A stretch of 35,906 nt of DNA from Candidatus Moraniibacteriota bacterium (GTDB taxonomy: Bacteria; Patescibacteriota; Minisyncoccia; Moranbacterales; UBA1568): positions 1 to 35,906 of the forward strand of contig JBBQYU010000003.1 in the NCBI GenBank assembly GCA_038208355.1, given 5' to 3'. Each line of letters begins with the position of its first letter. Position 1 is the stretch's first letter. Both the position numbers and the translations under genes were made by a program. Under the pieces are notes generated by a model that was not told the origin of the DNA, did no database searches, and saw only the letters and a list, made by a program, of their open reading frames with translations. Of this stretch, positions 10,890 to 35,906 are shown piece by piece.

Positions 10890-12286
10890 TAGTTGGGGGT
10901 CAATGCTATGCCTTTCGTGGTGAGTGTCGTACCAATGGTCACCGTACTGGTCTTGTTCTGAAATCCGACCGTCGTAACAGTGATGTCATAATCACCCGCT
11001 ACAAGGGCTGGCAATGCTGTTGGAAAATACGCCCACCCATACTGGCCAGTCACCACCGTCGCGTCATAGGCATTAATGACGCTGGAAAGTTTGACGCTCG
11101 CACCATTGACCGGCGAACCGTCTGTGCTATTCGTAACCTCCACTTTAACCGAACCAATATTTTTATCCAAAAGAATTGCCGTTACCTGGCTAGTACTTCC
11201 AGGCAGCAAATCAAAAACATTGGCCACTACACTCGTTTCCGGAGACATTTTGTAGAATTCATAGCCAGAAGCCAACTGGGTAAAAGTATACTGTCCATAA
11301 CTTTCATTAGGATAGACTTTTTCTCCGGAGCCATTGGTACTACTCGTAGACGAAAACCCATACACCAATTCACCGGTAGCTGGATCCGTTCCGAGTACTC
11401 GGCCACCGGTCAAGGCGAAAGAAACATTCGGGATAGCCGTACCAAAAGGGTCATGAGTTGCCAGCTTCACCTCGACCGCCCTGTCGACTACCAATGTTTT
11501 CTGATTGAGCGTATTAATCACCACTGAGGCGTGGACATCAACGGGGTTGTACGATGAAGTTGGATAGGATGGGTACGTAGTAGCTCCGAAATAACCATTT
11601 TTCGAAGCGGTCAAGACGTATTTCTCTGTCCCGGCCGGAGCGCCTGGCAGAGTAATATTGCCCGTAGCATCCGTAGTGGCCGTGAAATCAACCCCGGAAG
11701 CACTATTCACCGCATGGACATTCACCCCAACCACCCCGCTCCCGTCGACGCCGATAATGTTGACCGACAACACTCCGCCGCCGCCCGACGATTCTATACC
11801 GTTGGGTGAAAAATTCCCGAACAAAGCCACTGTCTGATCCACACCAAGGTTCCCCCAACTCACGGTAACCCGCACCCGTTTATAATCTGTCGGGATCGTG
11901 TCATTAGGCGCTCCACCAAGCTTACCATCAAAAGCATCATCGACGTACTGCACAAAGGTGTGCACCGTATACTTCATGGTATTGACGCTGATAGTTTCGT
12001 CTTCAAGCAAGTCCCCCGCAGGAATACCATACACCCAAATACTCCCATTCCAGCGTTTGGTACCGATTTTATCATAGGCAATACTGCGAATAATCTCCAT
12101 TTTCTGATTGGCCAGCGCCGTCGCCCCCAGGCGGTTTTTTGATTCGATGATAAGTCGCGTTCCTACGGTGTAAATCTGAGAAAAAACAACCGCTATCAAA
12201 GCAAAGATAAACATCACCACCAAGGCTTCAATCAGGGTGAATCCCTTGGAGTTTTCGGCCGTTAGCTTAGAGCGTAGAGTTTTCAT
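10889..12286 (-). CDS. Prepilin-type protein with C-terminal beta-sandwich (carboxypeptidase-regulatory-like) domains
   Basis: KG-FTLIEALVV; T/S/G-rich segments TTDATG...GAPAG..Y.LTASKNGY and PVNGASV...GDYDITV. Confidence 0.85.
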   Translation of the reverse strand: MKTLRSKLTAENSKGFTLIEALVVMFIFALIAVVFSQIYTVGTRLIIESKNRLGATALANQKMEIIRSIAYDKIGTKRWNGSIWVYGIPAGDLLEDETISVNTMKYTVHTFVQYVDDAFDGKLGGAPNDTIPTDYKRVRVTVSWGNLGVDQTVALFGNFSPNGIESSGGGGVLSVNIIGVDGSGVVGVNVHAVNSASGVDFTATTDATGNITLPGAPAGTEKYVLTASKNGYFGATTYPSYPTSSYNPVDVHASVVINTLNQKTLVVDRAVEVKLATHDPFGTAIPNVSFALTGGRVLGTDPATGELVYGFSSTSSTNGSGEKVYPNESYGQYTFTQLASGYEFYKMSPETSVVANVFDLLPGSTSQVTAILLDKNIGSVKVEVTNSTDGSPVNGASVKLSSVINAYDATVVTGQYGWAYFPTALPALVAGDYDITVTTVGFQNKTSTVTIGTTLTTKGIALTPN

Positions 12287-12295
12287 GAAAAAATA

Positions 12296-13516
12296 CTACT
12301 TTATGTTCTCAAGAACGGAGTACATCGGCTGCAACATGGCTACAGCGAAAAACCCCACCGAGCCACCGATGAGAAGCATCAGTATTGGTTCAATGATAGA
12401 AGACATGTTCTTGGTAATCTGAGAGACCTCTTCTTCATAAAATTCCGCCAAGCGCTGCAATACCGTTTCCGTTTTTCCCGTCTCCTCTCCCACTTCGATA
12501 ATCTGCGGTACCAAAACAGGAAAAATCTTCGGATAGCGTCGAATCACCTTGCTCAAATCCACACCCTTCTGGATTTCCACGATGGCCTCAGCCAAAGCAT
12601 CCTTGTAGTAAACATTAGAGAGAGTCTTGGAAACAATAGTAAGCGCATTGACCACCGAAACACCACTCTTCAAAAGCGAGCTGTAGATACGAGCGAAGCG
12701 AGCGCAGTTCACCTTGATAATGATATTGCCGATGACCGGCATGTACAAAAAGAGGTAGCCAAAAACGCGTTTGCCCATCGCTGTGCCGGAAAAGAGCTTG
12801 GTGCCCACCACTACCAAAACAACTATGGCCACACTAAGAAAAGCATGCTGCCGCAAAAATTCGCTGAAGGCGATAATAATCTGTGTGGTCACCGGGAGTG
12901 CAACATCCATATCCTGAAAAACGCTGGTAATCTTGGGCAGGATATAGGTCAACATGAGAATGCCGATAGCGATCATCGCGACCACGATGACAGCTGGGTA
13001 GATAAGGGCCCCGTGTACCTTGGAGAGCAAGTCGTTTTCTTTTTCCAACTGCAGCGCCAAAATATCCAACACTTCTTCCAAGTTACCACTCACTTCGCCA
13101 ACATAAACCATATTGACAAACAATTCGTTGAAGACGGTCGGGTACTTACCCAACCCTTCGGAAAGCGTTTTACCTGATTGCAAATCATCATTGACATCCT
13201 CAAGAATTTTCTTAAAAGTTTTGTTGGACGTCTGGATACTCAAGTTATTCACCGCCCGAGATACGGTCAATCCTGACGAAACCATCACCGCCAAGTTACG
13301 AGTGAAAGTCATCTTCTCTTTCAGAGGAACCGTTTTGAAACGATCAAAAAACTTTATCTGGATGCTCGAAGCCACCGCCTCCTCCTTGTGTGAAGTGAGC
13401 AATAGTCCCTGGCTGCGTAAATCCGAAGCAAGCGATTTCTCATCCTTCGCTTCCATTTCGCCACCAGAGGTCTCTCCCGTCACGGCATTTTTCGCCGTAT
13501 AGAAAAATTTCGGCAT
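12296..13516 (-). CDS. pilC: Type IV pilus inner-membrane platform protein PilC / T2SS F
   Basis: MPKFFY.A, GEVSGNLEE, ALIYP, GEETG, IIEP, AMLQPMY. Confidence 0.95.
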   Translation of the reverse strand: MPKFFYTAKNAVTGETSGGEMEAKDEKSLASDLRSQGLLLTSHKEEAVASSIQIKFFDRFKTVPLKEKMTFTRNLAVMVSSGLTVSRAVNNLSIQTSNKTFKKILEDVNDDLQSGKTLSEGLGKYPTVFNELFVNMVYVGEVSGNLEEVLDILALQLEKENDLLSKVHGALIYPAVIVVAMIAIGILMLTYILPKITSVFQDMDVALPVTTQIIIAFSEFLRQHAFLSVAIVVLVVVGTKLFSGTAMGKRVFGYLFLYMPVIGNIIIKVNCARFARIYSSLLKSGVSVVNALTIVSKTLSNVYYKDALAEAIVEIQKGVDLSKVIRRYPKIFPVLVPQIIEVGEETGKTETVLQRLAEFYEEEVSQITKNMSSIIEPILMLLIGGSVGFFAVAMLQPMYSVLENIK

Positions 13517-22371: not shown

Positions 22372-24180
22372 TTACTTGGAGCGCCGATACGCCCCAGATA
22401 CTTTACCATAGAGAAACAATTCTGTCGCCAGAAAAAGCCATTTGGTCGCGTTGACCACAGTCCAATACTCGGGATGTTTGGTCTGTGCTGCCGCTCGCGA
22501 CATTTTTTCGTACAGTTTTTTATCAGTGAACAAATCAAACAGATACTGAGCCACTTTTTTCGTATCACCCGTCGTCACCAGAAAACCATTTTTTTCATGT
22601 TGAATTTGCAAAGGAATCCCTCCAGTACGATAAGCAACCACCGGTACGCCCTTGGCCAGAGACTCCGTCACTTTCACTTCGAATCCTTCGCGACGGGAAA
22701 GTTGTAGAGCAACCGAACTGCCCCGCAACAACGCATTCAATAACTGATCGACATGCGGCACACGCGCCACTTTGATATCGCTCGCCAGATGTTTGTAACG
22801 ATCCATTTCGAGAAGAAGCAGTATCTCATCGAGAATCATGCTCCCCTGAGGATCATCAATCGCCCCGTTTCCGATGATGACCAACTGTGGAGTCTCTCGT
22901 AGTGAGTGATGCGTATCGTCAAATTCCTTGCGAAACCGCCGATAGGCCTCTACAACATCCGGGATGCCCTTAGAAGGATCGAAACGCGCCACTTGGATAA
23001 TATAGGGCCGACTCAGGCGCAAGGGCGACTGGCCGTTTTCCGCCAGGATTTGATTGAAAAGTCGCTGGTAGTAACGCAGATGCTGTGGTGAAAGTTCTTT
23101 GTTCAATCCGTCCAACGGGTCGGTGGCGGCCGGCATCAACACCACTTTTCCCTTCGGCAAATCCTTAGGGACAAAGGCCTTGATCGGATGACTCACAAAG
23201 ATATCCGCCTGATAGATGTTCTTTTTCAAAAAGCTCCAAGTCTTTTCCTGTGGCAAACCCTGACGATTGATAAGGTCGGCGCGTACCTGGATATGCGAAC
23301 GATAAATAATCTTGACCTGAGGGTTAGCCTGCTTGATAAAGGGAATCATGCCTGAGGGTTGCGGATCATCGATCACCACGACATCAGCGTCTCGATAAAC
23401 CCGACGAAACGCCCGAGCATTCTTAGCCACCCAATCCTCATAGATTTTTTTGTCACTGCTATTGAGTATGACATTGCGCGCCGCCACTCCCTGCAAGACA
23501 TTGTGGAATTTACGCTTGGTCACATCAAACACGGCCGTATCCGGACTCATAACATACCAACTGACGTCCACTCCCAACAATCGATAGAGACGCATCATGG
23601 CGTGGCGCATCAAAGCAACGCCGCCGCCGCTGGGCGTACTGCTGAAAAACACCATTTTGATATGTTTTTCCCGATAGCGACGTGTCCGTTCCATGAGGCC
23701 AGAAAAATCACGCGGCGATGTGACCGCGGCGTATTCATCTAGATTGGTCAAATACGAGGGGATGACCTGGCGCGTGTGCGTCAGAGAGACTCGAGCGATA
23801 GAGCCATCATGATATCTTTTGGCCACCGCTTGGGCAGCTGTGGCTGCTTCTTTTTTGCCGGGCTTTTCCGCAGGAAACAGATGCGCCACAATATCATATT
23901 TCAACCACAACCTGGTGGCTAGTTTAGCATTGCGCTTTTCATCGCCTCCACAAATACCCAGCGCCACTACCTTTACATGGTGCTGCTTTGTATACGCTCG
24001 CAAAAAACGAGTCACCTCCTGCCGAACCTTTTTTCCTGAAGTAACCACAGAGGCCTCGGTCATTTCCCCTCGACGATTGACTATAGCAACAAAGAATTTT
24101 TCATCGTGCCAAGAGAGTCCAGCATACGCCGGCGGAGAGAGAACAGTTGATCGTGGTGGAAGAATATCAATTTTTCGCAT
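22372..24180 (-). CDS. GT4 glycosyltransferase, trehalose phosphorylase/synthase type
   Basis: FFSSTPSGGGVALMRH, IDDPQP, YRSHI, DPLDGLNK, QVARFDPSKG, EGFEVKVTE, GGIPLQI. Confidence 0.88.
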   Translation of the reverse strand: MRKIDILPPRSTVLSPPAYAGLSWHDEKFFVAIVNRRGEMTEASVVTSGKKVRQEVTRFLRAYTKQHHVKVVALGICGGDEKRNAKLATRLWLKYDIVAHLFPAEKPGKKEAATAAQAVAKRYHDGSIARVSLTHTRQVIPSYLTNLDEYAAVTSPRDFSGLMERTRRYREKHIKMVFFSSTPSGGGVALMRHAMMRLYRLLGVDVSWYVMSPDTAVFDVTKRKFHNVLQGVAARNVILNSSDKKIYEDWVAKNARAFRRVYRDADVVVIDDPQPSGMIPFIKQANPQVKIIYRSHIQVRADLINRQGLPQEKTWSFLKKNIYQADIFVSHPIKAFVPKDLPKGKVVLMPAATDPLDGLNKELSPQHLRYYQRLFNQILAENGQSPLRLSRPYIIQVARFDPSKGIPDVVEAYRRFRKEFDDTHHSLRETPQLVIIGNGAIDDPQGSMILDEILLLLEMDRYKHLASDIKVARVPHVDQLLNALLRGSSVALQLSRREGFEVKVTESLAKGVPVVAYRTGGIPLQIQHEKNGFLVTTGDTKKVAQYLFDLFTDKKLYEKMSRAAAQTKHPEYWTVVNATKWLFLATELFLYGKVSGAYRRSK

Positions 24181-25331: not shown

Positions 25332-26453
25332 CTATTCGAGGGTAATAGAGACGATTTCGGGGACATTACCGACACGCATGGCTGGGCCCCAGGTACCTAC
25401 CCCGTTAGAAGTATAGAGCGTATAGTCGCCCATCGGATACAAACCGTAATCAAACCCTTTATAAACCAGAGCAGTAATCAGCCCAAAAGGATATATCTGA
25501 CCTTTATGGGTGTGGCCGGAGAGCTGAAGATTGATACCGGCCTCGACGAATTGCGTGATATAGGTCGGCGAGTGAAAGAGCAACACATTTGGTTGTCCAA
25601 GATACTGGTCTTTCAGTATTGCCAAGACATCCAAGACACTCGCGGTAGACACACCGCGCTCCGGATACGATAGTCCAATCACTTTAAGCCCGCGCACGTC
25701 AACCACCTGATTGTCGAGAATATGAACCTTGGTCTGCGCCAAAACCGAAAAGACTTCAGAAAGTCCCACATAGGTCTCGTGATTGCCCGTTACAAAATAC
25801 ACTCCCTGAGGCGCGCGCAGGGTATCGAGCGGCTGAACCAGGGTATCAAGATGACCATCCATCCCATCGAAGAGGTCTCCTGTGATAAATACTACTTCTG
25901 GATTAACGGCATTCACCTGTGCCATCACCCCCGAAAGCCACCGAGCCTGGTAGATGGCCCCCAAATGTACATCGGACAACTGAACCACTTTTTTCCCGCG
26001 CCATTCCTCTGGCAGCCCCGGAATACGGACCGTAATCTCACGGACGCGCGGATGGAAAGCGTTGTAGCTGCCGGCAATCGAAACTACCACAGCCAGTCCC
26101 ACTACCAACAAACCCACAACCGTCTGCGCTATGCCCCAACCGAACCATGACAGCACAAAAGAAAAAAACCATGCACCGAGCAAAAGCAAAATAAGATTGG
26201 TTAACAACCCCAGCCAAAAACCGGAAAGAAAGTAGAGCCCTCGAGTAAAAGTATTTTCCTGCCAATGAATAAGCAGCGAGAAAAGGATAAAGCTTGACCC
26301 AAACAGCGCCAAAGCGCCCATGAGCCAATACTTCACCTGAGTCGGGAGAGTCGGGAAAAAGTGCACGATACCCTGATAGGCCAGGAAATGGGCTCCGAAT
26401 AAAATAAGTATCGCCGCACCAATAAAAGCGACTATTTGCATACGTATGGTCAT
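25332..26453 (-). CDS. Membrane-anchored calcineurin-like metallophosphoesterase (YkuE/YaeI-like)
   Basis: SDVHLG, TGDLFD, GNHE, SGHTHKGQ, GTWGP; N-terminal TMs. Confidence 0.92.
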   Translation of the reverse strand: MTIRMQIVAFIGAAILILFGAHFLAYQGIVHFFPTLPTQVKYWLMGALALFGSSFILFSLLIHWQENTFTRGLYFLSGFWLGLLTNLILLLLGAWFFSFVLSWFGWGIAQTVVGLLVVGLAVVVSIAGSYNAFHPRVREITVRIPGLPEEWRGKKVVQLSDVHLGAIYQARWLSGVMAQVNAVNPEVVFITGDLFDGMDGHLDTLVQPLDTLRAPQGVYFVTGNHETYVGLSEVFSVLAQTKVHILDNQVVDVRGLKVIGLSYPERGVSTASVLDVLAILKDQYLGQPNVLLFHSPTYITQFVEAGINLQLSGHTHKGQIYPFGLITALVYKGFDYGLYPMGDYTLYTSNGVGTWGPAMRVGNVPEIVSITLE

Positions 26454-27049: not shown

Positions 27050-27451
27050 CTATTCCGTGGTTGCACCGTCAAATTCCGGACTGTCCGCCTCGGCCTCTTC
27101 GCGGGTTGCCCGCACCACGCCGTCCTGATGATGGGGCGGAGCGTAAATCGTATACAGTTTCAGCGTTTCAGTCTGTGAAGTATTGATGACATTGTGCTGC
27201 GCGCCCATCGGGACGATGACCGCATCACCATCTGTCACTGTATAGACACTCTCGTCGATAACCACTTGGCCCGTGCCACTCTCAAAACGAAAAAACTGAT
27301 CTCCTTCATCGTGGGTCTCCAATCCGATTTCTTCCCCCGGCAAAAGCGACATCAACACCAACTGACAATCCGCCGCCGTATAGAGCACTCGACGAAAATC
27401 ACTGTTGTCTTCAGTCAGCTGCTCGATATTCCCAAAGTATCCTTTTTTCAT
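27050..27451 (-). CDS. Cupin domain protein
   Basis: FRRVLYT, QLVLMSL.PGEEIG.E.H..DQFF, VPMGAQHNV, KLYTIYAPPHH. Confidence 0.92.
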   Translation of the reverse strand: MKKGYFGNIEQLTEDNSDFRRVLYTAADCQLVLMSLLPGEEIGLETHDEGDQFFRFESGTGQVVIDESVYTVTDGDAVIVPMGAQHNVINTSQTETLKLYTIYAPPHHQDGVVRATREEAEADSPEFDGATTE

Positions 27452-27483
27452 ATGATTGAAAAAATTATGGATTATCTGCTTGC

Positions 27484-27741
27484 CTACAGTATACACCCAC
27501 CCGAAGCAATGAGTGTCAGCTTGGCCGCTCGGGACAGTTTTTTGACTCGCGCCTCCGCCTGAGTAGCGGTAGAACGATTGCGGAAACGCTTGGTATAGAC
27601 CAGCTCCACTGGCCGGCGCGCCCGGGTGTACTTGGCGCCCCGCAGAGAAGCGTTATGCTCCTCCACTCGGCGCTTCACATCAACCGTGATGCCGGTATAG
27701 AGCGTCTGATCAGCACATTTCAGAATATACAAATAGTACAT
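27484..27741 (-). CDS. GIY-YIG nuclease (YhbQ/UPF0213)
   Basis: YLYILKC.D.TLYTGIT, GAKYTR.RRP, EARVKKLSR. Confidence 0.93.
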   Translation of the reverse strand: MYYLYILKCADQTLYTGITVDVKRRVEEHNASLRGAKYTRARRPVELVYTKRFRNRSTATQAEARVKKLSRAAKLTLIASGGCIL

Positions 27742-27753
27742 ACGATACTAACA

Positions 27754-28932
27754 TCAAGATTCTATCTGAACAGGTAACAACGCATTCTTCTTTTTCATGG
27801 AATAATATAGGATACTGAAACCCAAGAGCGAAAACAGCCCAGCCGCTATAAACGGATAGTAGGCCTTGATTTCAAACAACGCCCCCGCCAGAAGTGGACC
27901 AAACACCATACTCAAAAACATAATAGAAGCCAAGACACCGAGAATCTCACCGCGCTTCTTGACGTTCTGCCTGATAGTGAGACTGGTCAAAATCACTCGC
28001 AGCACCGACTGTCCCATCGTCATACACAACAGACCAATAATGAAAAAATAAATGTTCGGGATGGCCGTGATGAGATACCCCAGACCGAAGACAAAAAACA
28101 AGGTCAAGGCCAATTTCTGTTCTTCAAAATAACGCAGCCAAAAATGTTTCAGCAAGAGTCCCTGATTGATGACCAGGATTACTCCCACTCCCGCCATGAA
28201 CGATCCTGCCACCGCCGATCCGTACCCGAACACCTTGTCCAAGTACAAAGCAAAAACCGACTGCTGGCTGGCCAACGCTAGGCCAAAAATAAACCACACC
28301 ACATAATTCCCTATCAATTCCTTTTCCCGATAAATCCCCAGTATCGGCGCAAAGGGATTGACACTCAGTTTTTTCTCCGCATCTCGATGCAGATGGCTCT
28401 CCGGCAGATTGATAAAGGCCAATATCAAGTTCAGACTAGCCAGAATACCCACCACCCAAAAAGGAAGCGCGTGAGAAAAGGTCCCCAACCAACCACCCAA
28501 GACGGGGCCAATGATAAAAGCTATCCCGAAAATAGAACCAATCAGTCCTAGGTTGGCAATCCGTTCTTTTTCATCCTTGGCCAGGTCCGCCAGATAGCTC
28601 TGGGCAATAGGCATATTGCCAGCCGCCAAACCATCGATAATCCGACCAACGAACAAAAACACGATACTGTGGGCACTGGCAAAGACCAGCCACCCCAGCG
28701 CGGTACTAGCGATACTGATGAGGAGCACTGGTCGCCGACCAATCTTGTCTGACAAGGCACCCAAATAAGGAGCGCTCAGGAAAGAACACAGGGAGAAAAC
28801 CGAAAACAGCACCGTCACCACGAAAGCAGACACGCCGAAAGACTCAACATAAAAGGGCAAAATAGGAATGACAATACTGACACCCAGCACATCGATAAAA
28901 GCCGTCATCAGAATGATTTGTTTCGGAGACAT
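27754..28932 (-). CDS. MFS transporter, DHA1/TetA-like
   Basis: Motif A GALSDKIGRRPV, GRIIDG, motif C G..IGPVLGG, LPES; about 12 TM. Confidence 0.92.
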   Translation of the reverse strand: MSPKQIILMTAFIDVLGVSIVIPILPFYVESFGVSAFVVTVLFSVFSLCSFLSAPYLGALSDKIGRRPVLLISIASTALGWLVFASAHSIVFLFVGRIIDGLAAGNMPIAQSYLADLAKDEKERIANLGLIGSIFGIAFIIGPVLGGWLGTFSHALPFWVVGILASLNLILAFINLPESHLHRDAEKKLSVNPFAPILGIYREKELIGNYVVWFIFGLALASQQSVFALYLDKVFGYGSAVAGSFMAGVGVILVINQGLLLKHFWLRYFEEQKLALTLFFVFGLGYLITAIPNIYFFIIGLLCMTMGQSVLRVILTSLTIRQNVKKRGEILGVLASIMFLSMVFGPLLAGALFEIKAYYPFIAAGLFSLLGFSILYYSMKKKNALLPVQIES

Positions 28933-29141
28933 AATTGTACGGCAATAGCGTTATTTTTTACCTACGACTTCCCGCAGAGCAGTAGTATGATAGCAGAAAT
29001 ATCGGGCGCAATCCAGCCCCATCAATATATATGCCCCTTCCGTTACCTTGACAAAAGACCTCACTTGAGAGAGAATCTCATATCTATCTGGCCCACGCTC
29101 AGATAGACTAGTCCCTTCCAAAAATCAACCAGGAGCCACTC

Positions 29142-29765
29142 ATGGACGCAACCATTCACCCCTCATTCGCGCGCGATAGTCTGCCAAGCAACGCCCTCGA
29201 ACTCTGTGACCTTTTGAGGCTCAGCAATGAAAGCGAAGTACCCATTGAGTCCTTCACCATCATTTCTGACGGCAACAAAATGGTGACCAAAGTTGGCCCG
29301 GGTACCTACAAGACCGCGCTGGTACTCGTATACCTCTCGGCTCTGGCTGGCTTTCCGGCATTTGTCTTGACCAATGCCATGCACGAGCATATCCTCTCCC
29401 CCTATTTTGGTCTAACGCTTTTGGCCGACGCTGCTAATCCCCAAACCAAACGTACCAACCTCCGAGCGCTCGTCGGAAAAACGGTGCGCATCAAAGTCAA
29501 GTTCAGGCCGGACTATGACCACGCCAATCTTCCCAAGAGTCGCACGGTGCAAGATATTCTCTGGTTTGGCTGGGAACGGCGCGAGTCCCTCACTGCCACC
29601 TCCCCAGAGCCCTTCTTGCGGGCGGCCATTGCCTGGCTCCTCAATCGGGCCGACCACCATCTGCTCGATCCGGACGAGATAATTGGTAGTCTGACGATGA
29701 CCCAGTGGGTGAACCGCGCCCGCAACATGTATTGCCGCCTCACCCCAAACCAGACCGGCTCCTAA
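29142..29765 (+). CDS. Hypothetical protein
   Basis: AGGAG SD; TTGACA-17-GAGAAT at 29048-29076; terminator downstream. Confidence 0.65.
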   Translation: MDATIHPSFARDSLPSNALELCDLLRLSNESEVPIESFTIISDGNKMVTKVGPGTYKTALVLVYLSALAGFPAFVLTNAMHEHILSPYFGLTLLADAANPQTKRTNLRALVGKTVRIKVKFRPDYDHANLPKSRTVQDILWFGWERRESLTATSPEPFLRAAIAWLLNRADHHLLDPDEIIGSLTMTQWVNRARNMYCRLTPNQTGS

Positions 29766-29790
29766 TCCACCACCATCCGCAACGCGGATC

Positions 29791-29825
29791 AAAAAACCTG
29801 CTGCTCACCGAGTACCAGGTTTTTT
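29791..29825. terminator. Bidirectional terminator between convergent genes
   Basis: aaaaaacctg / caggtttttt stem. Confidence 0.65.
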
Positions 29826-29854
29826 CTTTTTCTCAAGATTGTGAACAACGTCAT

Positions 29855-30172
29855 TTACTCTTTGACTGATAATTTTTTCTCCCGATCCGGCCCAAGTCCC
29901 CACTGCCAACGCGGTGACTCCCCCTTGTAATAACAGATCACCAGGAGCCAAGCCGTCAAAAGAATGACGAGAAAGGGGAAGGAATAAAAAGCATTTTGAA
30001 ACGAAGTGCCAAGTTCGGTTTGGGGCGACAAGACAACCAACGCCCCAACATAGGCGAAAATTACCGCCCACCCCTGCCATTTGACCGGGACCCAGCCCCA
30101 GCCATAGACTTTTCGTTTGAACCAATATCCCTGTGGGTTGTCCCGCAGGTACGCCACGTATTTTTTAAACAT
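29855..30172 (-). CDS. Small 2-TM membrane protein
   Basis: YWFKRKVYGWGW.P..WQGW, two TM segments, KGESPRWQWG. Confidence 0.8.
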   Translation of the reverse strand: MFKKYVAYLRDNPQGYWFKRKVYGWGWVPVKWQGWAVIFAYVGALVVLSPQTELGTSFQNAFYSFPFLVILLTAWLLVICYYKGESPRWQWGLGPDREKKLSVKE

Positions 30173-30213
30173 AGATTTGATAGGTTTGCTCAGATACTGA
30201 TTATATATCCAGT

Positions 30214-30244
30214 ATACAGTTACGTAATCAGTTACGTAACTGTA
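30214..30244. promoter_or_regulatory. Tandem palindromic operator
   Basis: GTTACGTAAT 30219-30228 and GTTACGTAAC 30231-30240 (12-bp period). Confidence 0.7.
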
Positions 30245-30303
30245 TGGTCAATTGCAACGCCGTGGTCCTCTTTCACCAAGGCTACGAACGGGCACTTGTC
30301 ACA

Positions 30304-30711
30304 CTACCTATTCATGTAAGTAATTGTTAATTGAAGCGTGACTGCAAATGAGACCCAGAGGAAATATGGGATGTTACTATAGACGACCCAGTGCAAATCA
30401 GGTGAAGCGTGCCAGATAGTGGCGAGGGCCCAGATGAGCGTGCCCAAGACGAGCAGGATGTCGATAGAGGCCAGGAGGTTGTTCTTGAGGCCGAATTGAA
30501 AATAGGTAAAAGAGAAATTGAAGATGAGGTTCAAAATAAACGGCAAGGCTACCATCATCGTAAGCTCTTTGGTGATGAACGTCTTGTAGAAGACTGTGCC
30601 GAAAGAGACGGCGATAAGAGCGTACAGCACCGTCCAGACCGGGCCGAAGATCCAGCTCGGTGGCGCCCAGAAAGGCTTTACTAATTCTGTGTATACTTGC
30701 GGTTCGTTCAT
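30304..30711 (-). CDS. tspO: TspO/MBR family membrane protein
   Basis: KPFWAPPSWIFGPVWTVLY, LIFNFSF, PYFLWVSFA. Confidence 0.92.
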   Translation of the reverse strand: MNEPQVYTELVKPFWAPPSWIFGPVWTVLYALIAVSFGTVFYKTFITKELTMMVALPFILNLIFNFSFTYFQFGLKNNLLASIDILLVLGTLIWALATIWHASPDLHWVVYSNIPYFLWVSFAVTLQLTITYMNR

Positions 30712-30746
30712 ATCTTTTATTTCTTCTCTTACTCGTAGTCCACAAT

Positions 30747-30923
30747 TTATCGTTTATGCCAATCTCTGATTTCCAATCCACCTCTTATTCTTTTGACGAC
30801 CACTTTCTGCTTCTCCCGCCAACCTAATTCCCGCACCAGCTCAATAGGGAGCGTCACGGCAATAGACTTGCCGCCCAACTTGGTCAACTTACGCACGTTT
30901 TTATCTGCAATTGTTTTTGTCAT
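30747..30923 (-). CDS. AbrB/MazE/SpoVT-family DNA-binding protein (58 aa, not in the ORF track)
   Basis: MTKTIADKNVRKLTKLGGKSIAVTLPIELVRELGWREKQKVVVKRIRGGLEIRDWHKR, matching the swapped-hairpin pattern RK...G.S..VTLP...R.LG. Confidence 0.85.
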   Translation of the reverse strand: MTKTIADKNVRKLTKLGGKSIAVTLPIELVRELGWREKQKVVVKRIRGGLEIRDWHKR

Positions 30924-30934
30924 ATATGTACCCT

Positions 30935-30956
30935 GTTACGTAACGAGTTACATACT
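30935..30956. promoter_or_regulatory. Tandem palindromic operator upstream of the AbrB-type gene
   Basis: GTTACGTAAC 30935-30944 and degenerate GTTACATACT 30947-30956, just downstream of TAGAAT (30960-30965, minus strand). Confidence 0.65.
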
Positions 30957-31006
30957 CCCATTCTACTCCCCTCTCACCGCTGCCGCAACCACGTCCTTTC
31001 CCCAAG

Positions 31007-31043
31007 AAAAAACCCGCCTTTGGTCGGATGACCGGGGGCGGGT
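31007..31043 (-). terminator. Intrinsic terminator
   Basis: acccgcctttggtc / gaccgggggcgggt imperfect stem followed by T6 on the minus strand. Confidence 0.65.
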
Positions 31044-31062
31044 AATGAGGGGCGGCGATGTG

Positions 31063-31887
31063 CTATAAAAGCGCACACAGGTTCAGGAAGGCCAATTCCC
31101 TGGCCAGTGGAATGGCCGCTCTTTTGAGCTGCTCCAGCTGGAGATAGTAATCTTCGGCATCCGGTCGCGTTATTTGCGCTACCAAAATTTCCGAATACCG
31201 CTGGTCCAATTCCAGTAATGCGAAAAAGACACCAGACGTATTTCTGATACCCAGTTCCGGGTAGATTTCGGCTACCCTGTCTTTGGTATCACTGCCTTGC
31301 AAAAGGCTGATGTTCGCGCGCTGAATCATCATGCGTCCAGCATAGACTGGAAAACTGAGCGCCTTGCCGAGCAAGCGCGCTGTCTGTTCTGCGGACAAAG
31401 AATCGAAAGCGATTTCACCTCGTTCAAATGCCTCCATTTTGTGGATGAGATACGCCTTGATATCAGCCGCCACATCAGAACGACATTGGATCAATTGCGT
31501 GGGGTTTTCTTTGATGAGGCCGCCACCAGCCATCGCCAAGTTGAAATGCGCAAAAAAAGTGGCCGAAAGACCATGTGCCCCCGACTCCGCCAATGCCGCG
31601 TCTTGCGGTATGAACTGCACCGGAACGTAGAGCTTGTGCGCCACACGATCCAAATCCTGCATCAGAGCAATCACTTCCTGACGATTCGGCTGATTATACA
31701 AAACCAAGACATCAATATCACTGCGGGAGGTGTAATCACCCCGCATACACGAGCCAAGCATGAGTGCAGCAACCACCTCTGGCGCCGCCGCAAGTTCTTT
31801 GCGAATAAATCGCGCAACGTCATAAATAGTCCCGGGCATCGGAACATGCCAACGCTCTATTTCCTCAAACGTGAACACTTTTCCCAT
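31063..31887 (-). CDS. Nucleotidyltransferase (MNT-like) domain with a helical C-terminal domain
   Basis: LGSCMRGDYTSRSDIDVLV; start at 31887 after a purine-rich SD-like stretch (GAAGGGG); the longer ORF-track start crosses a promoter and a repeat. Confidence 0.8.
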   Translation of the reverse strand: MGKVFTFEEIERWHVPMPGTIYDVARFIRKELAAAPEVVAALMLGSCMRGDYTSRSDIDVLVLYNQPNRQEVIALMQDLDRVAHKLYVPVQFIPQDAALAESGAHGLSATFFAHFNLAMAGGGLIKENPTQLIQCRSDVAADIKAYLIHKMEAFERGEIAFDSLSAEQTARLLGKALSFPVYAGRMMIQRANISLLQGSDTKDRVAEIYPELGIRNTSGVFFALLELDQRYSEILVAQITRPDAEDYYLQLEQLKRAAIPLARELAFLNLCALL

Positions 31888-31936
31888 GACAATCCCCTTC
31901 TCAGTGGTTAAGTTGTAAAAAAACGAGCGAAGAAGC

Positions 31937-31965
31937 AGTATACTGAAAAAAGCCTCGAAAGTCAA
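31937..31965 (-). promoter_or_regulatory. Sigma70 promoter
   Basis: TTGACT-17-TATACT. Confidence 0.75.
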
Positions 31966-31982
31966 TGGCCAACCAAAAACCA

Positions 31983-32077
31983 ACCCTCCGTGAGGAAAGT
32001 TGGTTGGAGAAGTTAGGCTTTGGCTTTCTTTTTCTGGTGGCCGAGGTTCTTGATACCCTGGTTCTTCACCTTGCCTT
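31983..32077. repeat. 95-bp direct repeat, copy 1 (att-like)
   Basis: Identical to 35175-35269 except G32002/A35194. Confidence 0.95.
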
Positions 32078-32135
32078 TCCCTCACAAAGGATTATACTGC
32101 AGACATCGAAACTTTCACTCTCCGAGGAGATGACC

Positions 32136-32336
32136 ATGAACTGGCAATGGCTGAAAGAGCTATTTAGCTGGAACGAAGTACCAGATCCAGCAACTGCCGA
32201 GCATCTGGAGGAGGTCCTTCCGGCTTCACCTCAGGCAGGCACAGAGCTCGGCTGCGCGTATTGGGACGGCATGGACGCTAGCTCCGAAGGACCCTTTCAC
32301 AGGAATCCTGACGGACGTATGAACGCTCGGCGCTAA
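32136..32336 (+). CDS. 66-aa acidic, Trp-rich hypothetical peptide
   Basis: GAGGAG SD; TATACT at 32093-32098; terminator at 32358-32391. Confidence 0.6.
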   Translation: MNWQWLKELFSWNEVPDPATAEHLEEVLPASPQAGTELGCAYWDGMDASSEGPFHRNPDGRMNARR

Positions 32337-32357
32337 ACCCAAGCAACAACAAATCAC

Positions 32358-32391
32358 ACCGTCGTCGCGCAACAGCGCCCGACGGTTTTTC
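32358..32391 (+). terminator. Intrinsic terminator
   Basis: accgtcg / cgacggt stem followed by a T-run. Confidence 0.65.
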
Positions 32392-32422
32392 ATTCTTTTA
32401 ACGGAGTAATGGCTTCAGACTA

Positions 32423-33142
32423 TCAGACAAGTGTCTCGGCTGCTTTCACGAGATCTGCTATAAACGAATCTCGATTGGCTGCCGTAACTGCTTGATATTT
32501 CCGTCTCAATCTTCGAAGTATTTTTTCATGCATCGGATAATCTATAGGAACAGCACCGAACACTCTGAGCCAACGTGGTGTCGCCTGAACCACTGAATTG
32601 AAAAGCTCAGTTATGTGCCAACAGAAAAATGCATTCTCTCCCTTTTTTAATTCTGGCCGAGTTCGAAAGAGGTATTGATAGCAAATGAAATGAAGCAACT
32701 CATGAGCGACTACCACGGGTATCAGTTTCTTACGGCGGAATCGGACAGGAATCTGGAAAGTCTTATCTTCGAGATAACGAGGAAACATCCCCCACACTGT
32801 TGGGTAGGCAATATATTTACCTTTTGGCCACGGCAATGTTTCAAAAATCTCATCCGTGAGTTCAAAAAAAACTGGTGCCAATTTCTGCCATACCTGTTTG
32901 GCTGCAAGTATATCGCGTTTTATCCCATCACTCTCTTTCATGTGAAGGTGTCGAATCTGCTGCCGTACCGCCAAAGGCACCGTCCGTCTAGAAACAAGCG
33001 CGGAGCGAAGCTCTGGCGCGACCGAAAAAACTGCCTGTTCCAAGGCTGCTCCATTATCAAAACGAGCATCACGAAGAAAGCCACTCACAGCAGCAACATC
33101 CTTCTGATGACTTGTTGAAAAACGGACTCGTGGGTGTTTCAT
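32423..33142 (-). CDS. HExxH zinc-metallopeptidase-like protein
   Basis: VVAHELLHF with a downstream E in WHITE (gluzincin-like spacing). Confidence 0.7.
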   Translation of the reverse strand: MKHPRVRFSTSHQKDVAAVSGFLRDARFDNGAALEQAVFSVAPELRSALVSRRTVPLAVRQQIRHLHMKESDGIKRDILAAKQVWQKLAPVFFELTDEIFETLPWPKGKYIAYPTVWGMFPRYLEDKTFQIPVRFRRKKLIPVVVAHELLHFICYQYLFRTRPELKKGENAFFCWHITELFNSVVQATPRWLRVFGAVPIDYPMHEKILRRLRRKYQAVTAANRDSFIADLVKAAETLV

Positions 33143-33177
33143 AAAAAAATGTGGCGAAAGAGATTCTCTCTCGCCAC
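33143..33177 (-). terminator. Terminator after the radical SAM gene, abutting the next ATG
   Basis: gtggcga / tcgccac stem followed by T7 on the minus strand. Confidence 0.7.
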
Positions 33178-33199
33178 TAGCATACGCGAATCGGCGTCT

Positions 33200-34567
33200 T
33201 CAGGCAACTGTCTCGGCGTACGTTTGCCAGATTAGCCACTCGAGCGACTTGCGGCTATGCGGGCAGATGCGCCGATCGATATTCCAGCGATTGCCCGTGC
33301 TAAGCTCGACGCTCGCTGGACAACCGCCACCACAGATGGCCAGAGCCGGACAACCATGGCACTCCTTCATGTAGAACGGTGAACGGGTTCGCCACTCGGC
33401 ATGCAACCCAGCCGCAACCGGATCGCTATCGTCATGCACGGAACCACGGAAATACGTCCGGGACTTCACGAAATCCTGGCAGACACCGATGGCGCCATCC
33501 GGAGCGACGATAATCTGGTTACCGCTCACGCCGCAATCGACGAAAATCGGGTCTTGATCGGCAAAAGACTGAACCTTACGCATCATCCGTTCTTCGTAGA
33601 TCCCCAGATCGCGGAAACGTTCGAAGGCCTGCAGAATACAGTCGGCCGCACATTCGTAGTACTCGTCATCCACAGGAACTGCTGGTGAGAAATGCAGGAT
33701 GTTGAAGTTGATCCCACTTTCCACCCGCAGATCGTTGATGAAGAAGTCGAGCACCTCGTCAAAGTGAGCAACCACATCCGGCGTAAGCGTTGCCGAAAGG
33801 CCGACCTCGATACCGACCGACCGCGCCAGTTCATAAGCCCGGCGAGCACTAACGAAGGTATCCACGCCATCCTTCTTGGCAATACGGAACTGATTTGTGT
33901 AAAGAGCTGGCCCATCGAGAGAAATCCCAAGCGCCACCTTTTCCGCCGCGAGGTATCGTGCGAACTCCTCGTCGAGCAGGAGACCGTTGGTGAGGATGAC
34001 TAGCTTGGTTTCGGATGGCAGGGCACCGCTTGCCTTGCATTCCGCCAATCGACTCACAGCCCAGCGAATTGCCTTCTTGTTCATCAGTGGTTCGCCACCA
34101 TAGAGCTGGATAAGCTTTTCTGGATTGGTGCTGCCGTACTGCCTGGTCAACCTGGCAAACGTATCGATCGCCGCGGCCACTGTGGCCTCGTTCATGTGCC
34201 GCGCTCGGAATTGTGGAGCGCCTGGCGATTCCTCAAAGCAGTAGGTGCAACGCAGGTTGCAACCATCCGTCACGAGGAGATACATGACATCAAGCGGCTG
34301 ATGAGCCGCAAGCATAACTTGCCACTTTTCAAGCTCAGCCTGATCATCGTGATCAAGTGTCACCAAGAGGCCTTGCTCAATAAGACGAGGAAATGTTTCG
34401 CCGACCTCTTCGCGCCAGTCAGCTTCGGAACGGGCGGCGTTCCCTGCCTCCCTGATAACTTCCCCCACGACTCGCGAAAGATACGCTACTTCCATCGTCA
34501 AGGCGTGGTACAGGGCGGCCGTTTCTTCCCGGAAGAAGTAATGGACCCAAGTTGATAGACGATACAT
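33200..34567 (-). CDS. Radical SAM/SPASM peptide maturase with an N-terminal RRE-like region
   Basis: CNLRCTYC, YGGEPL, TNG, ISLDG; SPASM CG...DG...C, CHGCPALAICGGGC, distal C; GGAGG SD. Confidence 0.93.
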   Translation of the reverse strand: MYRLSTWVHYFFREETAALYHALTMEVAYLSRVVGEVIREAGNAARSEADWREEVGETFPRLIEQGLLVTLDHDDQAELEKWQVMLAAHQPLDVMYLLVTDGCNLRCTYCFEESPGAPQFRARHMNEATVAAAIDTFARLTRQYGSTNPEKLIQLYGGEPLMNKKAIRWAVSRLAECKASGALPSETKLVILTNGLLLDEEFARYLAAEKVALGISLDGPALYTNQFRIAKKDGVDTFVSARRAYELARSVGIEVGLSATLTPDVVAHFDEVLDFFINDLRVESGINFNILHFSPAVPVDDEYYECAADCILQAFERFRDLGIYEERMMRKVQSFADQDPIFVDCGVSGNQIIVAPDGAIGVCQDFVKSRTYFRGSVHDDSDPVAAGLHAEWRTRSPFYMKECHGCPALAICGGGCPASVELSTGNRWNIDRRICPHSRKSLEWLIWQTYAETVA

Positions 34568-34586
34568 GTCAACCTCCAGATGTGGA

Positions 34587-34622
34587 AAGGGACGGCGTCA
34601 GCTGATTCGCCTGCCGTCCCTT
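34587..34622 (-). promoter_or_regulatory. Intercistronic hairpin between precursor and maturase
   Basis: aagggacggc / gccgtccctt 10-bp stem with only a short T tail. Confidence 0.65.
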
Positions 34623-34646
34623 GTTTGACCAATTGCGTTGCCGCAA

Positions 34647-34805
34647 TCAGCCGACCTGCGCCGACGGCTTGACCGTGGCGCTTTTGCTCCTGCAGCGCAT
34701 GCAGGAGGTGTAGCAGCACTTGGGGCCGCCGAAGGTCTCGCTCGCGAGCCTCCGGGCGACTGCCAAACGCTGTTGCGACGTGGGCGTCGCCATTTGACCG
34801 CTCAT
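34647..34805 (-). CDS. Putative RiPP precursor peptide (52 aa)
   Basis: MSGQMATPTSQQRLAVARRLASETFGG-PKCCYTSCMRCRSKSATVKPSAQVG; GAAGG SD; immediately upstream of the rSAM/SPASM gene. Confidence 0.8.
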   Translation of the reverse strand: MSGQMATPTSQQRLAVARRLASETFGGPKCCYTSCMRCRSKSATVKPSAQVG

Positions 34806-34900
34806 AATGAGCCTTCTTTCTTCAGACACAGGGAAATTCCTGCGCCCTCATTCAACTATGCTTTCCCTCTTGTGTCAAGAGCGCGATGGTTTGTAAAAAA

Positions 34901-35170
34901 TTATTTCTTATCATTCTCATGACTCAGCTGAAAATCAGCACCGATGCGGGTACAAGTGCCATAGTCGCCCAATTCACAAAGTGCGATACGGTCCATAAGA
35001 AAAGACAGGCTGCTCTCAGGAAGATGCGCCAATACATCGGCTCGAGGCTGTTTCAACTTGGTGAAACTGATATGGTGTGAATAGAGCGTATAGGCGTCGG
35101 TCCAACCGCAGACCTTCAGATTACTCTGTTGCTTGGGGCTGAGTTCCGACCAACGGGCGAAATAGCGTAT
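34901..35170 (-). pseudogene. Open frame lacking a canonical start (gene fragment or ATA-initiated gene)
   Basis: No minus-strand stop from 35191 to 34904; GGAGG lies 6 nt before an in-frame ATA at 35170. Confidence 0.3.
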
Positions 35171-35174
35171 CCCT

Positions 35175-35269
35175 ACCCTCCGTGAGGAAAGTTAGTTGGA
35201 GAAGTTAGGCTTTGGCTTTCTTTTTCTGGTGGCCGAGGTTCTTGATACCCTGGTTCTTCACCTTGCCTT
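35175..35269. repeat. 95-bp direct repeat, copy 2 (att-like)
   Basis: Matches 31983-32077; covers the last 65 nt of ORF 35205-35387 plus 30 nt downstream. Confidence 0.95.
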
Positions 35270-35387
35270 CCAGGCGATGGGCTTCGAAGGTCACTTTGAC
35301 GTCTTTCTTGAGCGTGACCAACCCGGTGCGCCGCTTGCTGGGCTGCGGGTCATTTTGTGGGTCATTCTCCGGCGCTTTGATAATCAT
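35205..35387 (-). CDS. 60-aa Lys-rich small protein (apparent integration target)
   Basis: ATG-started ORF directly downstream of the preceding gene; basic C-terminus; no family recognised. Confidence 0.6.
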   Translation of the reverse strand: MIIKAPENDPQNDPQPSKRRTGLVTLKKDVKVTFEAHRLEGKVKNQGIKNLGHQKKKAKA

Positions 35388-35426
35388 AAGAGTAAAGGTT
35401 ACAAAATATCTTTTGTGCGTGTCGGG

Positions 35427-35906
35427 CTATTTCACAATCGAAGTCGGTGTCTGGGCTGGATAATTCGGCACCAAGAGTTGAGCTGTCACCGTATCACAGC
35501 TTTTCCCGGCGCCATGTTCGTACCACAACGTTCCTTCACCATATATATTTATGTTGGCAGTCTGATCAGAAGCCAGGTCAAAGGCCGCACACAACTCGAA
35601 CTCGCCCACTCGCCCCGCACCCTCAACCCGCGATGGAGTCACTACACGGTAGTCATAGGCCAGCCCGGTCGCTGGGTCATTGGCCTGCGCTATACAGTAG
35701 CTATACTGGCTCGACTGACGTAGGTCATCCAAAGAATTTGGTAACGCTCCCAAGCTCTGTGCGTACTGCTTGACACAGTCGGCAACTGTACTCAGATTGT
35801 CTGCTCGGGTCTGATCCAAAGTCCGGCTCCGCTGTGTCGCAGGTGAGCCGCTGACAAAAAAACCAAAGATAATCCCGAGGACCACCAAAGCCGTCATCCC
35901 GCGTCC
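35427..35906 (-). CDS. C-terminal part of a membrane protein with a pseudopilin-G-like domain (DUF5671-like), 5' end outside the window
   Basis: TM then GSP..QR...D..R..NL, LP.SL.DL, DP.TG..Y.Y, FELCA.F. Confidence 0.7.
   Translation of the reverse strand, partial: GRGMTALVVLGIIFGFFVSGSPATQRSRTLDQTRADNLSTVADCVKQYAQSLGALPNSLDDLRQSSQYSYCIAQANDPATGLAYDYRVVTPSRVEGAGRVGEFELCAAFDLASDQTANINIYGEGTLWYEHGAGKSCDTVTAQLLVPNYPAQTPTSIVK

Follow-up and report, generated by a model that had tools for sequence, protein, structure and literature searches.

An integrase-less islet bracketed by copies of a small gene's 3' end in a Candidatus Moraniibacteriota genome, and its cassette at other gene ends

The islet behind small60, its boundaries and its cargo

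The stretch of DNA considered here (the window; 35,906 nucleotides (nt), GenBank contig JBBQYU010000003.1, from a Candidatus Moraniibacteriota bacterium) is the whole of contig C3 of its source assembly, G000 (754,879 bases, 52 contigs, 79% complete). Towards its right end lies small60, a gene for a 60-residue protein, and behind that gene sits an islet that carries a predicted peptide-modification cassette and no recombinase gene, bracketed by two copies of the 3' end of small60. The features of the locus are given below, from small60 onwards; the related genomes of the genus and order with which it was compared are coded G006, G008, G011, G022, G032, G034, G180 and so on.

35205-35387, minus strand: small60, an open reading frame (ORF) for a conserved, lineage-specific protein of 60 residues with a basic C-terminus (...GKVKNQGIKNLGHQKKKAKA); the insertion sits behind it
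35172-35269, minus strand: repeat copy 2, comprising the last 62 coding nt of small60, its stop codon (35205-35207) and 33 nt downstream
34901-35171, minus strand: LigT', a remnant of a 2H-phosphoesterase (LigT-like) gene, of which the final ~90 codons are left; its break abuts repeat copy 2
34647-34829, minus strand: predicted precursor of a ribosomally synthesised and post-translationally modified peptide (RiPP); the likely start, ATG at 34805, gives 52 residues, the leader ends in GG and the core begins PKCCYTSCMRCRS...
33200-34567, minus strand: radical S-adenosylmethionine (rSAM)/SPASM peptide maturase, 455 residues (PF04055, E 4.7e-16; PF13353 also matches)
33151-33177, minus strand: terminator-like hairpin of 12 pairs plus a T-run, between the maturase and HExxH genes, from a consensus scan only
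32423-33142, minus strand: HExxH protein, 239 residues, a predicted zincin-like metallopeptidase
32133-32336, plus strand: ORF of 67 residues with a GGAG-type ribosome-binding site, in the 345-nt spacer between cassette and orphan
31980-32077, minus strand: repeat copy 1, an orphan 3' fragment of small60 that keeps an intact terminator

The two copies are the single long direct-repeat family in 30000-35906. They are 98 nt long, identical at 96 of 98 positions, and start 3192 nt apart with 3,094 nt in between. Both mismatches (31982/35174, A/T, and 32002/35194, G/A) lie in the terminator region, outside the coding sequence, which is identical in the two copies; a 75-nt identical core occupies 35195-35269. 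An earlier account made from the letters of this DNA (the sequence-only reading) had equated 31983-32077 with 35175-35269 at 94 of 95 positions, and a recount over that span agrees, with one mismatch. It had also held that one copy completes the 60-residue ORF and that the other is an orphan, and the reading frames bear this out: two codons before the homology begins, an in-frame TGA (32084-32082) closes the frame of copy 1, which leaves it 22 open codons and makes it an orphan 3' fragment. A genome-wide blastn search with the repeat, set beforehand as a test, finds two copies only in the 754,879-base assembly (E 3.6e-41), with which an all-against-all blastn comparison concurs, and a dispersed repeat is thus ruled out. 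The target was correctly named as a protein gene and not a tRNA; there are no Rfam matches in the window at gathering thresholds, so no tRNA or known RNA lies at the repeat. A repeat search found no terminal inverted repeats at the islet ends. A diversity-generating retroelement was likewise ruled out, there being no reverse transcriptase among the islet ORFs and both mismatches being non-coding.

The presence of two repeat copies was examined in assembled reads. One public run, probably the source sample, contains the stretch, and its Logan contigs were mapped on 30000-35906. Each of the four junctions between repeat and flank is covered by a Logan contig, and the 75-nt core forms a separate contig with a depth of 16.7, against 8.3, 8.5, 8.65 and 7.1 for the adjacent pieces of flank and islet; the two repeat copies per genome are thus real. 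The depth of the islet is on a par with that of its flanks. No joint and no loose ends were seen at the repeats among the mapped contigs; the single joint listed, 30376/30494, falls within TspO and stems from a contig whose depth is 2.45.

The orphan retains an intrinsic terminator (31978-32005) with a 12-bp stem followed by TTTTTGG (fold -34.6 kcal/mol), which appears among the listed terminator-like sites. The copy at 35172-35269 has a weakened stem, no T-run and no stable hairpin (fold -25.8 kcal/mol, z +0.75), no terminator-like site is listed there, and on the intact gene this copy passes straight into other DNA. An alignment of 19 small60 ends shows that relatives have a hairpin and T-run after the stop codon, as on the orphan, and that variation is mostly at third codon positions. 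Since the intact small60 has lost its terminator, its transcripts can run into the cassette, ending at the orphan terminator. Elsewhere in the genus, 11 of the 36 genomes compared have a match to small60; the 24 compared from other families of the order have none. The end of the gene is single-copy in each of the 11 related genomes and in each of 17 loci from two contig collections. A collection of 5.8 billion proteins holds 23 unnamed relatives, and no Pfam or NCBIfam family matches the protein.

By sequence, the cargo is a three-gene rSAM RiPP cassette, in which a Cys-rich precursor and an rSAM/SPASM maturase are joined by the HExxH protein. The maturase translation contains a readable CNLRCTYC motif and C-terminal Cys clusters, and matches 66 rSAM families, with near full-length matches to many models of rSAM/SPASM peptide maturases. 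Its best NCBIfam match is TIGR04136, the FibroRumin maturase, at 246.7 bits over residues 5-449, which does not reach the cut-off of 400. The precursor matches no Pfam or NCBIfam family. The HExxH protein, a candidate leader peptidase, is likewise without a family in Pfam or NCBIfam. Its relatives number 108, and one in the protein collection (P0025) is 87% identical; where the source names an organism it belongs to the Patescibacteria group, and two relatives are labelled SprT-family metalloprotease by the Joint Genome Institute. H147, E148, H151 and E179 are invariant in 44 HExxH sequences. The structure model (predicted local distance difference test score 95.6) has its best structural matches in the catalytic domains of M1 aminopeptidases, which are zincins, with Z scores of 7.2-7.9, a middling range, and root-mean-square deviations of 3.5-4.2 over 153-160 residues; a Foldseek search against the PDB returned nothing at E <= 0.001. 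There is no transporter or immunity gene in the islet, and a Pfam and NCBIfam scan of its ORFs found no replication gene. The claim that no recombinase lies in the 3.1 kb holds, in that no recombinase family in either database matches any ORF there. The 67-residue ORF belongs to no family, and a search of 49 other genomes of the genus yielded nothing beyond a single marginal match (E 0.006), so that its status as a gene is unsupported. Facing this ORF, a promoter-like site (TTGCCT, 16 nt, TATACT; 32071-32098, plus strand) spans the joint between orphan and islet, by consensus match only.

That the islet is acquired, as the sequence-only reading had proposed, is upheld to the extent that it is accessory DNA. 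Its GC content is 52.7% against 48.6% for the genome, a value reached by only 1.3% of 3-kb windows, and its tetranucleotide distance lies in the top 6.3% of genome 3-kb windows. An HExxH search of 319 genomes of the order found matches in seven, G000 included, and in G034 the region behind small60 is free of the cassette.

The DNA 3' of small60 varies among relatives (21 distinct loci), which marks it as a hot spot. A full LigT gene follows small60 in four of the 21 loci (G008, the near-identical contig L035, G011 and the metagenome contig L045). In G034, GIY-YIG and cupin genes begin 62 nt after small60, whereas in the window this pair is 7.5 kb away, and in G032 small60 is followed by a metallophosphoesterase gene whose window counterpart is at 25332-26453. 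The comparison with relatives that had been proposed therefore yielded a hot spot without insert in G034, and no genome of the same species was found. In the window the hot spot consists of two blocks, the islet and an older block, split by the orphan; the rest of it is as follows.

27742-31979, minus strand: older variable block behind the orphan, with (by Pfam) a nucleotidyltransferase (31063-31887), a MazE-like protein (30747-30923), TspO (30304-30711), a major facilitator superfamily transporter (27754-28932) and two ORFs of unknown function
27050-27741, minus strand: GIY-YIG (27505-27741) and cupin (27050-27496) genes, by Pfam, the conserved far side of the hot spot

The older block is missing between small60 and the GIY-YIG/cupin pair in G034. 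In composition it does not stand out from the rest of the genome, 77% of 3-kb windows having an equal or greater tetranucleotide distance. The LigT remnant lacks ~370-400 nt of its 5' part by alignment to G008 and G011, and it can be read without a break from the junction as far as its stop codon at 34901. Window 35167-34907 aligns with the 222-residue LigT protein of L045 at 75% over 87 residues, the full-length LigT next to small60 in G011 matches PF13563, and no duplicated LigT end was found on the far side of the cassette. Given that the gene-proximal part of the islet is a remnant of LigT, a native neighbour of small60, the islet probably came from a relative and does not form a self-contained element.

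At the ends of the window, a 93-nt direct repeat (94.6% identical; 1-93 and 288-380), with inverted partial copies on contig C31 (4253-4353), belongs to a repeated element that probably caused the contig break, and a pilin-like gene at the right end (35427-35906) continues on contig C33 (C33:697-2). Relatives with a ~400-residue protein covering both pilin-like parts indicate that C3 and C33 are neighbours.

The cassette and its scar at other gene ends

A protein search found one close copy of the maturase in the genus, in G006, at 83% identity. There the DNA matches the window at 73% nt identity over 2,473 nt (window 32446-34878), extending from the promoter region as far as the HExxH stop codon, such that the cassette has promoter-like DNA of its own in common with G006, and the precursor is 63% identical over 54 residues. 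The gene order in G006 is histidine kinase, cassette, a copy of the last ~165 nt of the kinase, a Bro-N gene, a third copy of the last 94 nt, and response regulator, with repeats of 94-165 nt. In G000 itself kinase, regulator and aspartyl-tRNA synthetase are contiguous and represent the empty version of this site. The whole cassette is also present in G180, a complete genome of another genus, with a maturase 52% and an HExxH protein 35% identical to those of the window and a precursor core of KCCYTSCTRCN; the core motif KCCYTSC(M/T)RC is common to window, G006 and G180. In G180 a 43-nt direct repeat flanks the 4.0-kb segment that holds the cassette. The repeat is made up of the final 7 nt of tRNA-Asp and the terminator of that gene, and among the scanned ORFs of this segment none matches a recombinase family. 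The same islet (L106, G180:C1, about 11800-12330, minus strand) also contains an ORF that by eye resembles a DUF2726-like nuclease-fold protein. Distant HExxH relatives in G033, G137, G318 and G210, which are without an adjacent close rSAM homologue, were not counted as cassettes. The cassette is thus found behind three different genes (small60, a histidine kinase and tRNA-Asp), in each case bracketed by repeats of the local gene end, and the scar is present in both of the instances that were picked up solely by protein similarity.

Scars of the same form with other cargo were sought by comparing about 1.5 Mb with itself (G000 plus 757 kb from G011, G022 and G006, with the G011 pairs 470564/474632 and 381221/391012 left out). 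Gene-end scars were recognised at the window pair, the G006 locus and two further sites only. On contig C5 of G000, the 3' end of a sugar-transferase gene (the last 88 coding nt plus terminator) is present at 23308-23440 (L054) and again at 28757-28889, the copies being 133 nt long and 92% identical; the 5.4-kb insert encodes a 1,243-residue protein and a pair of ORFs that are AbiE-like by eye. This site is empty in seven of 11 related loci and holds other cargo in two, and the remaining two end too soon to tell. In G011, the end of ychF (L090; G011:C1 469456-469627) has an orphan counterpart 11.3 kb downstream at 458197-458368 (172 nt, 84% identical), and the insert encodes a 1,951-residue fn3 protein, a MacB-like ATP-binding cassette transporter, and CBS and CHASE4/PAS proteins, with no recombinase.

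The other repeat pairs examined in the self-comparison are tandem paralogues, tRNA genes, or a dispersed intergenic element of ~140 nt. On G022:C3 seven copies of such an element, which is not a tRNA, fall within 32 kb; they lie in both orientations and are 75-95% identical (61859-62001, 64604-64735, 66283-66411, 71215-71361, 81627-81772, 84741-84880 and 93653-93757; L095 and L096). Elsewhere, locus L110 (G210:C9) has single genes separated by a ~124-nt element that includes a terminator hairpin and is present three times (7445-7567, 8525-8764 and 10048-10194); one of these genes is 41% identical to the window nucleotidyltransferase (31063-31887), and an rve-type transposase gene lies 1.6 kb off; L110 may be an array of one-gene islets. 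On G000 contig C27 an 80-nt direct repeat (96%; 21-100 and 1192-1271) surrounds a gene for a 302-residue protein of unknown function at the contig start, with no recognisable gene end.

At the loci where the repeats have diverged, the differences between gene-end copies and the corresponding ratios of non-synonymous to synonymous change (dN/dS) are as follows.

ychF pair (57 codons): 23.5 synonymous and 5.5 non-synonymous differences, dN/dS 0.03
Sugar transferase pair: 6 synonymous and 4 non-synonymous, dN/dS 0.16
Kinase copies A and B: 13 synonymous and 13 non-synonymous, dN/dS 0.16
Kinase copies B and C: 15 synonymous and 13 non-synonymous, dN/dS 0.10
Kinase copies A and C: 4 synonymous and 6 non-synonymous, dN/dS 0.44

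Kinase copy B of G006 moreover stays in frame through an indel. Mostly synonymous differences at these diverged loci imply that the orphans are alleles and not duplicates made in place; judged by their substitution patterns, the orphans, or else the ends now on the genes, evolved in working genes of other lineages. The coding parts of the window pair are identical, and the allele test is therefore powerless there. A search for a shared core found no 7-mer common to the repeats of at least three of the five loci, and shuffled controls do as well. That the repeats at the three cassette sites have no core in common speaks against a single site-specific enzyme.

Routes by which the islet may have been inserted

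The reading we favour, with a probability of roughly 0.4, is that of an integrase-less accessory islet inserted by homology-driven, Campbell-type recombination without an element-borne recombinase. The donor would have been a related Moraniibacteriota lineage with small60, LigT and the cassette side by side, and the islet would have brought with it the donor copy of the last ~100 nt of small60. A circularised fragment would then have undergone a single Campbell-type cross-over with the resident gene end, by host functions, so that the incoming gene end would now complete small60, without a working terminator, and the resident end with its terminator would have been displaced 3.2 kb downstream as the orphan. 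In this scheme we infer the circular intermediate, the host recombination route and the identity of the donor copy. In its favour count the terminator that only the orphan copy keeps, the LigT remnant, the foreign composition of the islet, the insert-free hot spot in G034, the scars at other gene ends with their allelic orphans, the lack of a common core among the repeats, the Xer-like enzyme as only tyrosine recombinase of G000, G006 and G011, and the presence of RecA and ComEC; the H47 island and insertion with long target duplication, both taken up below, are precedents. A single cross-over with a circle always leaves the scar and stacks new cargo beside the gene, which fits the G006 locus. 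With respect to what had been claimed before, the arrangement fits Campbell-type attL and attR sites but leaves that origin unproven, since linear one-sided recombination produces an identical structure; a recent date is plausible at 96 of 98 identical positions, an identity that gene conversion between the copies could also account for.

Several observations weigh against this reading. The window copies differ at 2 of 98 positions, both non-coding, and the allele argument thus rests on the other loci. Repeats that are about 70-84% identical (G006 copy B, G011 ychF) would make homologous cross-over inside them inefficient, and a cross-over further upstream or a site-specific enzyme suits such repeats better. 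The homology route alone cannot carry the cassette to a new gene end, yet three ends have it. Large serine recombinases are encoded elsewhere in G006 and G180, and G000 is 79% complete, so that a recombinase may be missing from the assembly. There is no second scar at the older block behind the orphan. Nor was an empty site of the same species found: a degenerate gene-end pattern retrieved ten stretches from genome contigs and seven from metagenome contigs, of which the nearest are ~81-82% identical in nt over 131-142 nt, and the closest small60 relatives are about 80-87% identical (80% for P0002 in the protein collection). Finally, the Logan contigs break at the core, where the integrated order and an empty site plus a 3,192-bp circle are indistinguishable, and no circular junction or empty-site joint is present among the contigs of this one run, which break at the repeat and drop rare forms.

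It is formally possible that no circle was involved and that linear one-sided recombination after DNA uptake, that is homology-facilitated illegitimate recombination, created the islet. A fragment from a relative would have paired with small60 or with DNA upstream of it, and its far end would have been joined inside the resident last ~100 nt, with the illegitimate joint at 32077/32078. We consider this unlikely, while noting that much of the evidence sits comfortably with it. RecA and ComEC are present in G000; the cross-over may lie outside the repeat, in which case an identity of about 70-84% is no obstacle; orphans that are alleles are as expected, as are repeats of 43-172 nt without a common core. 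The process is documented in competent species in the portion of PMC3240628 available to us, and insertions with long target duplication are found mostly in naturally competent species according to the accessible text of PMC2853133. Under this route, however, duplication is only one of several outcomes, yet both cassette instances found by protein similarity have it. We know of no report of the linear route leaving duplications as a rule, which counts against it. Furthermore, the first arrival of the cassette at a new gene end is left unexplained by the circular and the linear version alike.

A site-specific tyrosine integrase, acting in trans or since lost, would instead make the islet a decayed or cis-mobilisable element that carries a replacement gene end, with the repeats as true attL and attR sites. 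Such enzymes would account for the targeting of gene 3' ends, including the tRNA end in G180, for the stacked inserts at the G006 kinase end, and for imperfect repeats with mostly synonymous differences. Repeats of that kind are also seen with e14 and phage 21 in icd. A single PF00589 match was found in G000, a 345-residue protein with Xer-type SAM-like and catalytic domains encoded beside a UvrD-like gene, and no PF00239 match in this 79% complete assembly. Across 50 genomes of the genus exactly one PF00589 match is present in 37, none in two and more than one in 11, the last of which favours an integrase. In G000, G006 and G011, however, the only tyrosine recombinase is Xer-like, and no integrase was found in the six islets examined (in the C5 insert the ORFs were only read, the Pfam scan there being limited to the target gene). 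In addition, one cassette at three unrelated repeats without a common core would require three specificities. For mobilisation in trans, as the sequence-only reading had suggested, the one Xer-like recombinase is the only candidate enzyme. Taken together, we regard an integrase as distinctly unlikely.

A further rival to homology-driven insertion is duplication of the target in place, the usual picture of long target duplication, whereby a staggered break of ~100 nt would be filled in on both sides of the inserted DNA. The near-identity of the window copies (96 of 98) would be expected from such an event, and in the published H. pylori cases each repeat resembles its partner more than it does the empty target (PMC2853133, in the part of the text available). 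Against this, the orphans at the diverged loci evolved under purifying selection, with dN/dS of 0.03-0.16 in four of five comparisons and 0.44 in the fifth, and kinase copy B remains in frame through its indel, which decaying in-place copies would not. Moreover, the insert in the window has the native neighbour of small60 at its start, which would follow from the gene end having arrived in the same piece of DNA. Transposition with in-place duplication is accordingly excluded at the sister loci and unlikely at the window, and overall we hold in-place duplication to be very improbable.

The least probable of the readings that we weighed, and one to which we give little credence, is an assembly mis-join, in which an empty site and a separate 3,192-base circle, or a mixture of forms, were linked through the 75-nt core. 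The Logan contigs stop at the core, so that both linkages are possible, and flank and islet depths are alike (7.1-8.65). The integrated order was, on the other hand, resolved by the original assembly, the segment is without a replication gene, and related loci with repeats too diverged for mis-joining show the integrated arrangement; it is on the assembly and these sister loci that the order rests. A transposon or insertion sequence was rejected, with no transposase, no terminal inverted repeats, and orphans that are alleles at the related loci, as was an integron cassette, given that the only recombinase is Xer-type and that the repeat folds no better than shuffled sequences save for the terminator hairpin (z -1.42 and +0.75).

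Relation to known insertions and significance

The kind of insertion described here is already known, and taken alone the window offers an ordinary further example of a scar that has been described before. Insertion with long target duplication was reportedly described by Nobusato and colleagues in 2000. In the accessible text of a later survey, the inserted unit is shorter than 20 kb, the target repeats are 46-423 bp long and match a sequence that is single-copy where the insert is missing, and there are no mobile-element genes; the repeats often overlap a gene 3' end, the species are mostly naturally competent, and the insertions are tied to restriction-modification genes, with the mechanism left open (Furuta, Abe and Kobayashi, 2010; PMC2853133). 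The islet resembles these insertions, as far as that text describes them, in its repeats of 98 nt (>30 bp), its 3,094-nt insert (<20 kb), its lack of an integrase or transposase and its position at a gene 3' end. It differs from them in carrying a RiPP cassette and not restriction-modification genes, such that the break-making activity invoked there is missing here, in its host, a candidate-phyla-radiation bacterium, and in that the 'duplicated' ends at the related loci are diverged alleles under purifying selection (compared with the same part of PMC2853133).

A second parallel is the H47 genomic island of Escherichia coli, a recombinase-less 13-kb island encoding a microcin, for which excision of a circle independently of RecA was seen by PCR, according to the part of the report available (Azpiroz and Lavina, 2017; PMC5426353). 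Both are small islands of peptide-antibiotic type with no recombinase of their own and with long imperfect direct repeats. H47, at 13 kb, excises and re-integrates by host functions, whereas the islet measures 3.2 kb and is known from sequence alone; and in the available portion of that account (PMC5426353) the H47 repeats are not described as a gene 3' end, unlike those of the islet, which are the 3' end of small60.

In its cargo, the islet is similar to rSAM/SPASM clusters of the ranthipeptide or sactipeptide type, in which a short Cys-rich precursor is accompanied by a maturase and a putative peptidase. It departs from known clusters in its TIGR04136 score of 246.7 against a cut-off of 400, in an HExxH partner that falls in no named family, and in having no transporter or immunity gene.

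Integration into the 3' end of a protein gene is also familiar from integrase-borne elements. Prophage e14 and phage 21 insert at the 3' end of icd. The island SGI1, which bears an integrase, occupies the 3' end of trmE (PMC8409611, in the part available). As at these sites, the insertion behind small60 lies at a protein-gene 3' end, a replacement end is supplied and the displaced end is left as a repeat. Those elements have their own tyrosine integrase and a fixed core, whereas the islet has no integrase and its sites share no core. A literature search of limited scope found no paper on such islets in Patescibacteria.

The interest of these findings lies more in the evidence across loci than in the single islet. 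One cassette behind three genes, together with displaced ends that are alleles under purifying selection, narrows the mechanisms for long target duplication, which has lacked one since 2000. Scars of this type furthermore mark recently exchanged cargo, here an uncharacterised rSAM peptide cluster. Ultra-small bacteria of the candidate phyla radiation have few classical mobile elements and yet vary in gene content among relatives. The small60 locus and its four sister loci offer a concrete route, in which cassettes are placed behind conserved genes and a displaced end is left behind, with no recombinase.

This raises a broader idea, which we put forward as doubtful: that Moraniibacteriota, and perhaps ultra-small bacteria generally, gain and stack cassettes by a recombinase-free 'gene-end swap'. 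Each islet would bring along a spare, working allele of the 3' end of a conserved host gene. This allele would be a homology arm that moves with the islet and plays the part of attP without a set sequence, and host recombination could then place the islet after the corresponding gene of whichever relative received it, pushing the earlier end aside. If true, gene-end swap would be the homology-based counterpart of the integron, with repeated rounds building arrays such as that at the G006 kinase locus, and it would account for the long-unexplained 'long target duplications'.

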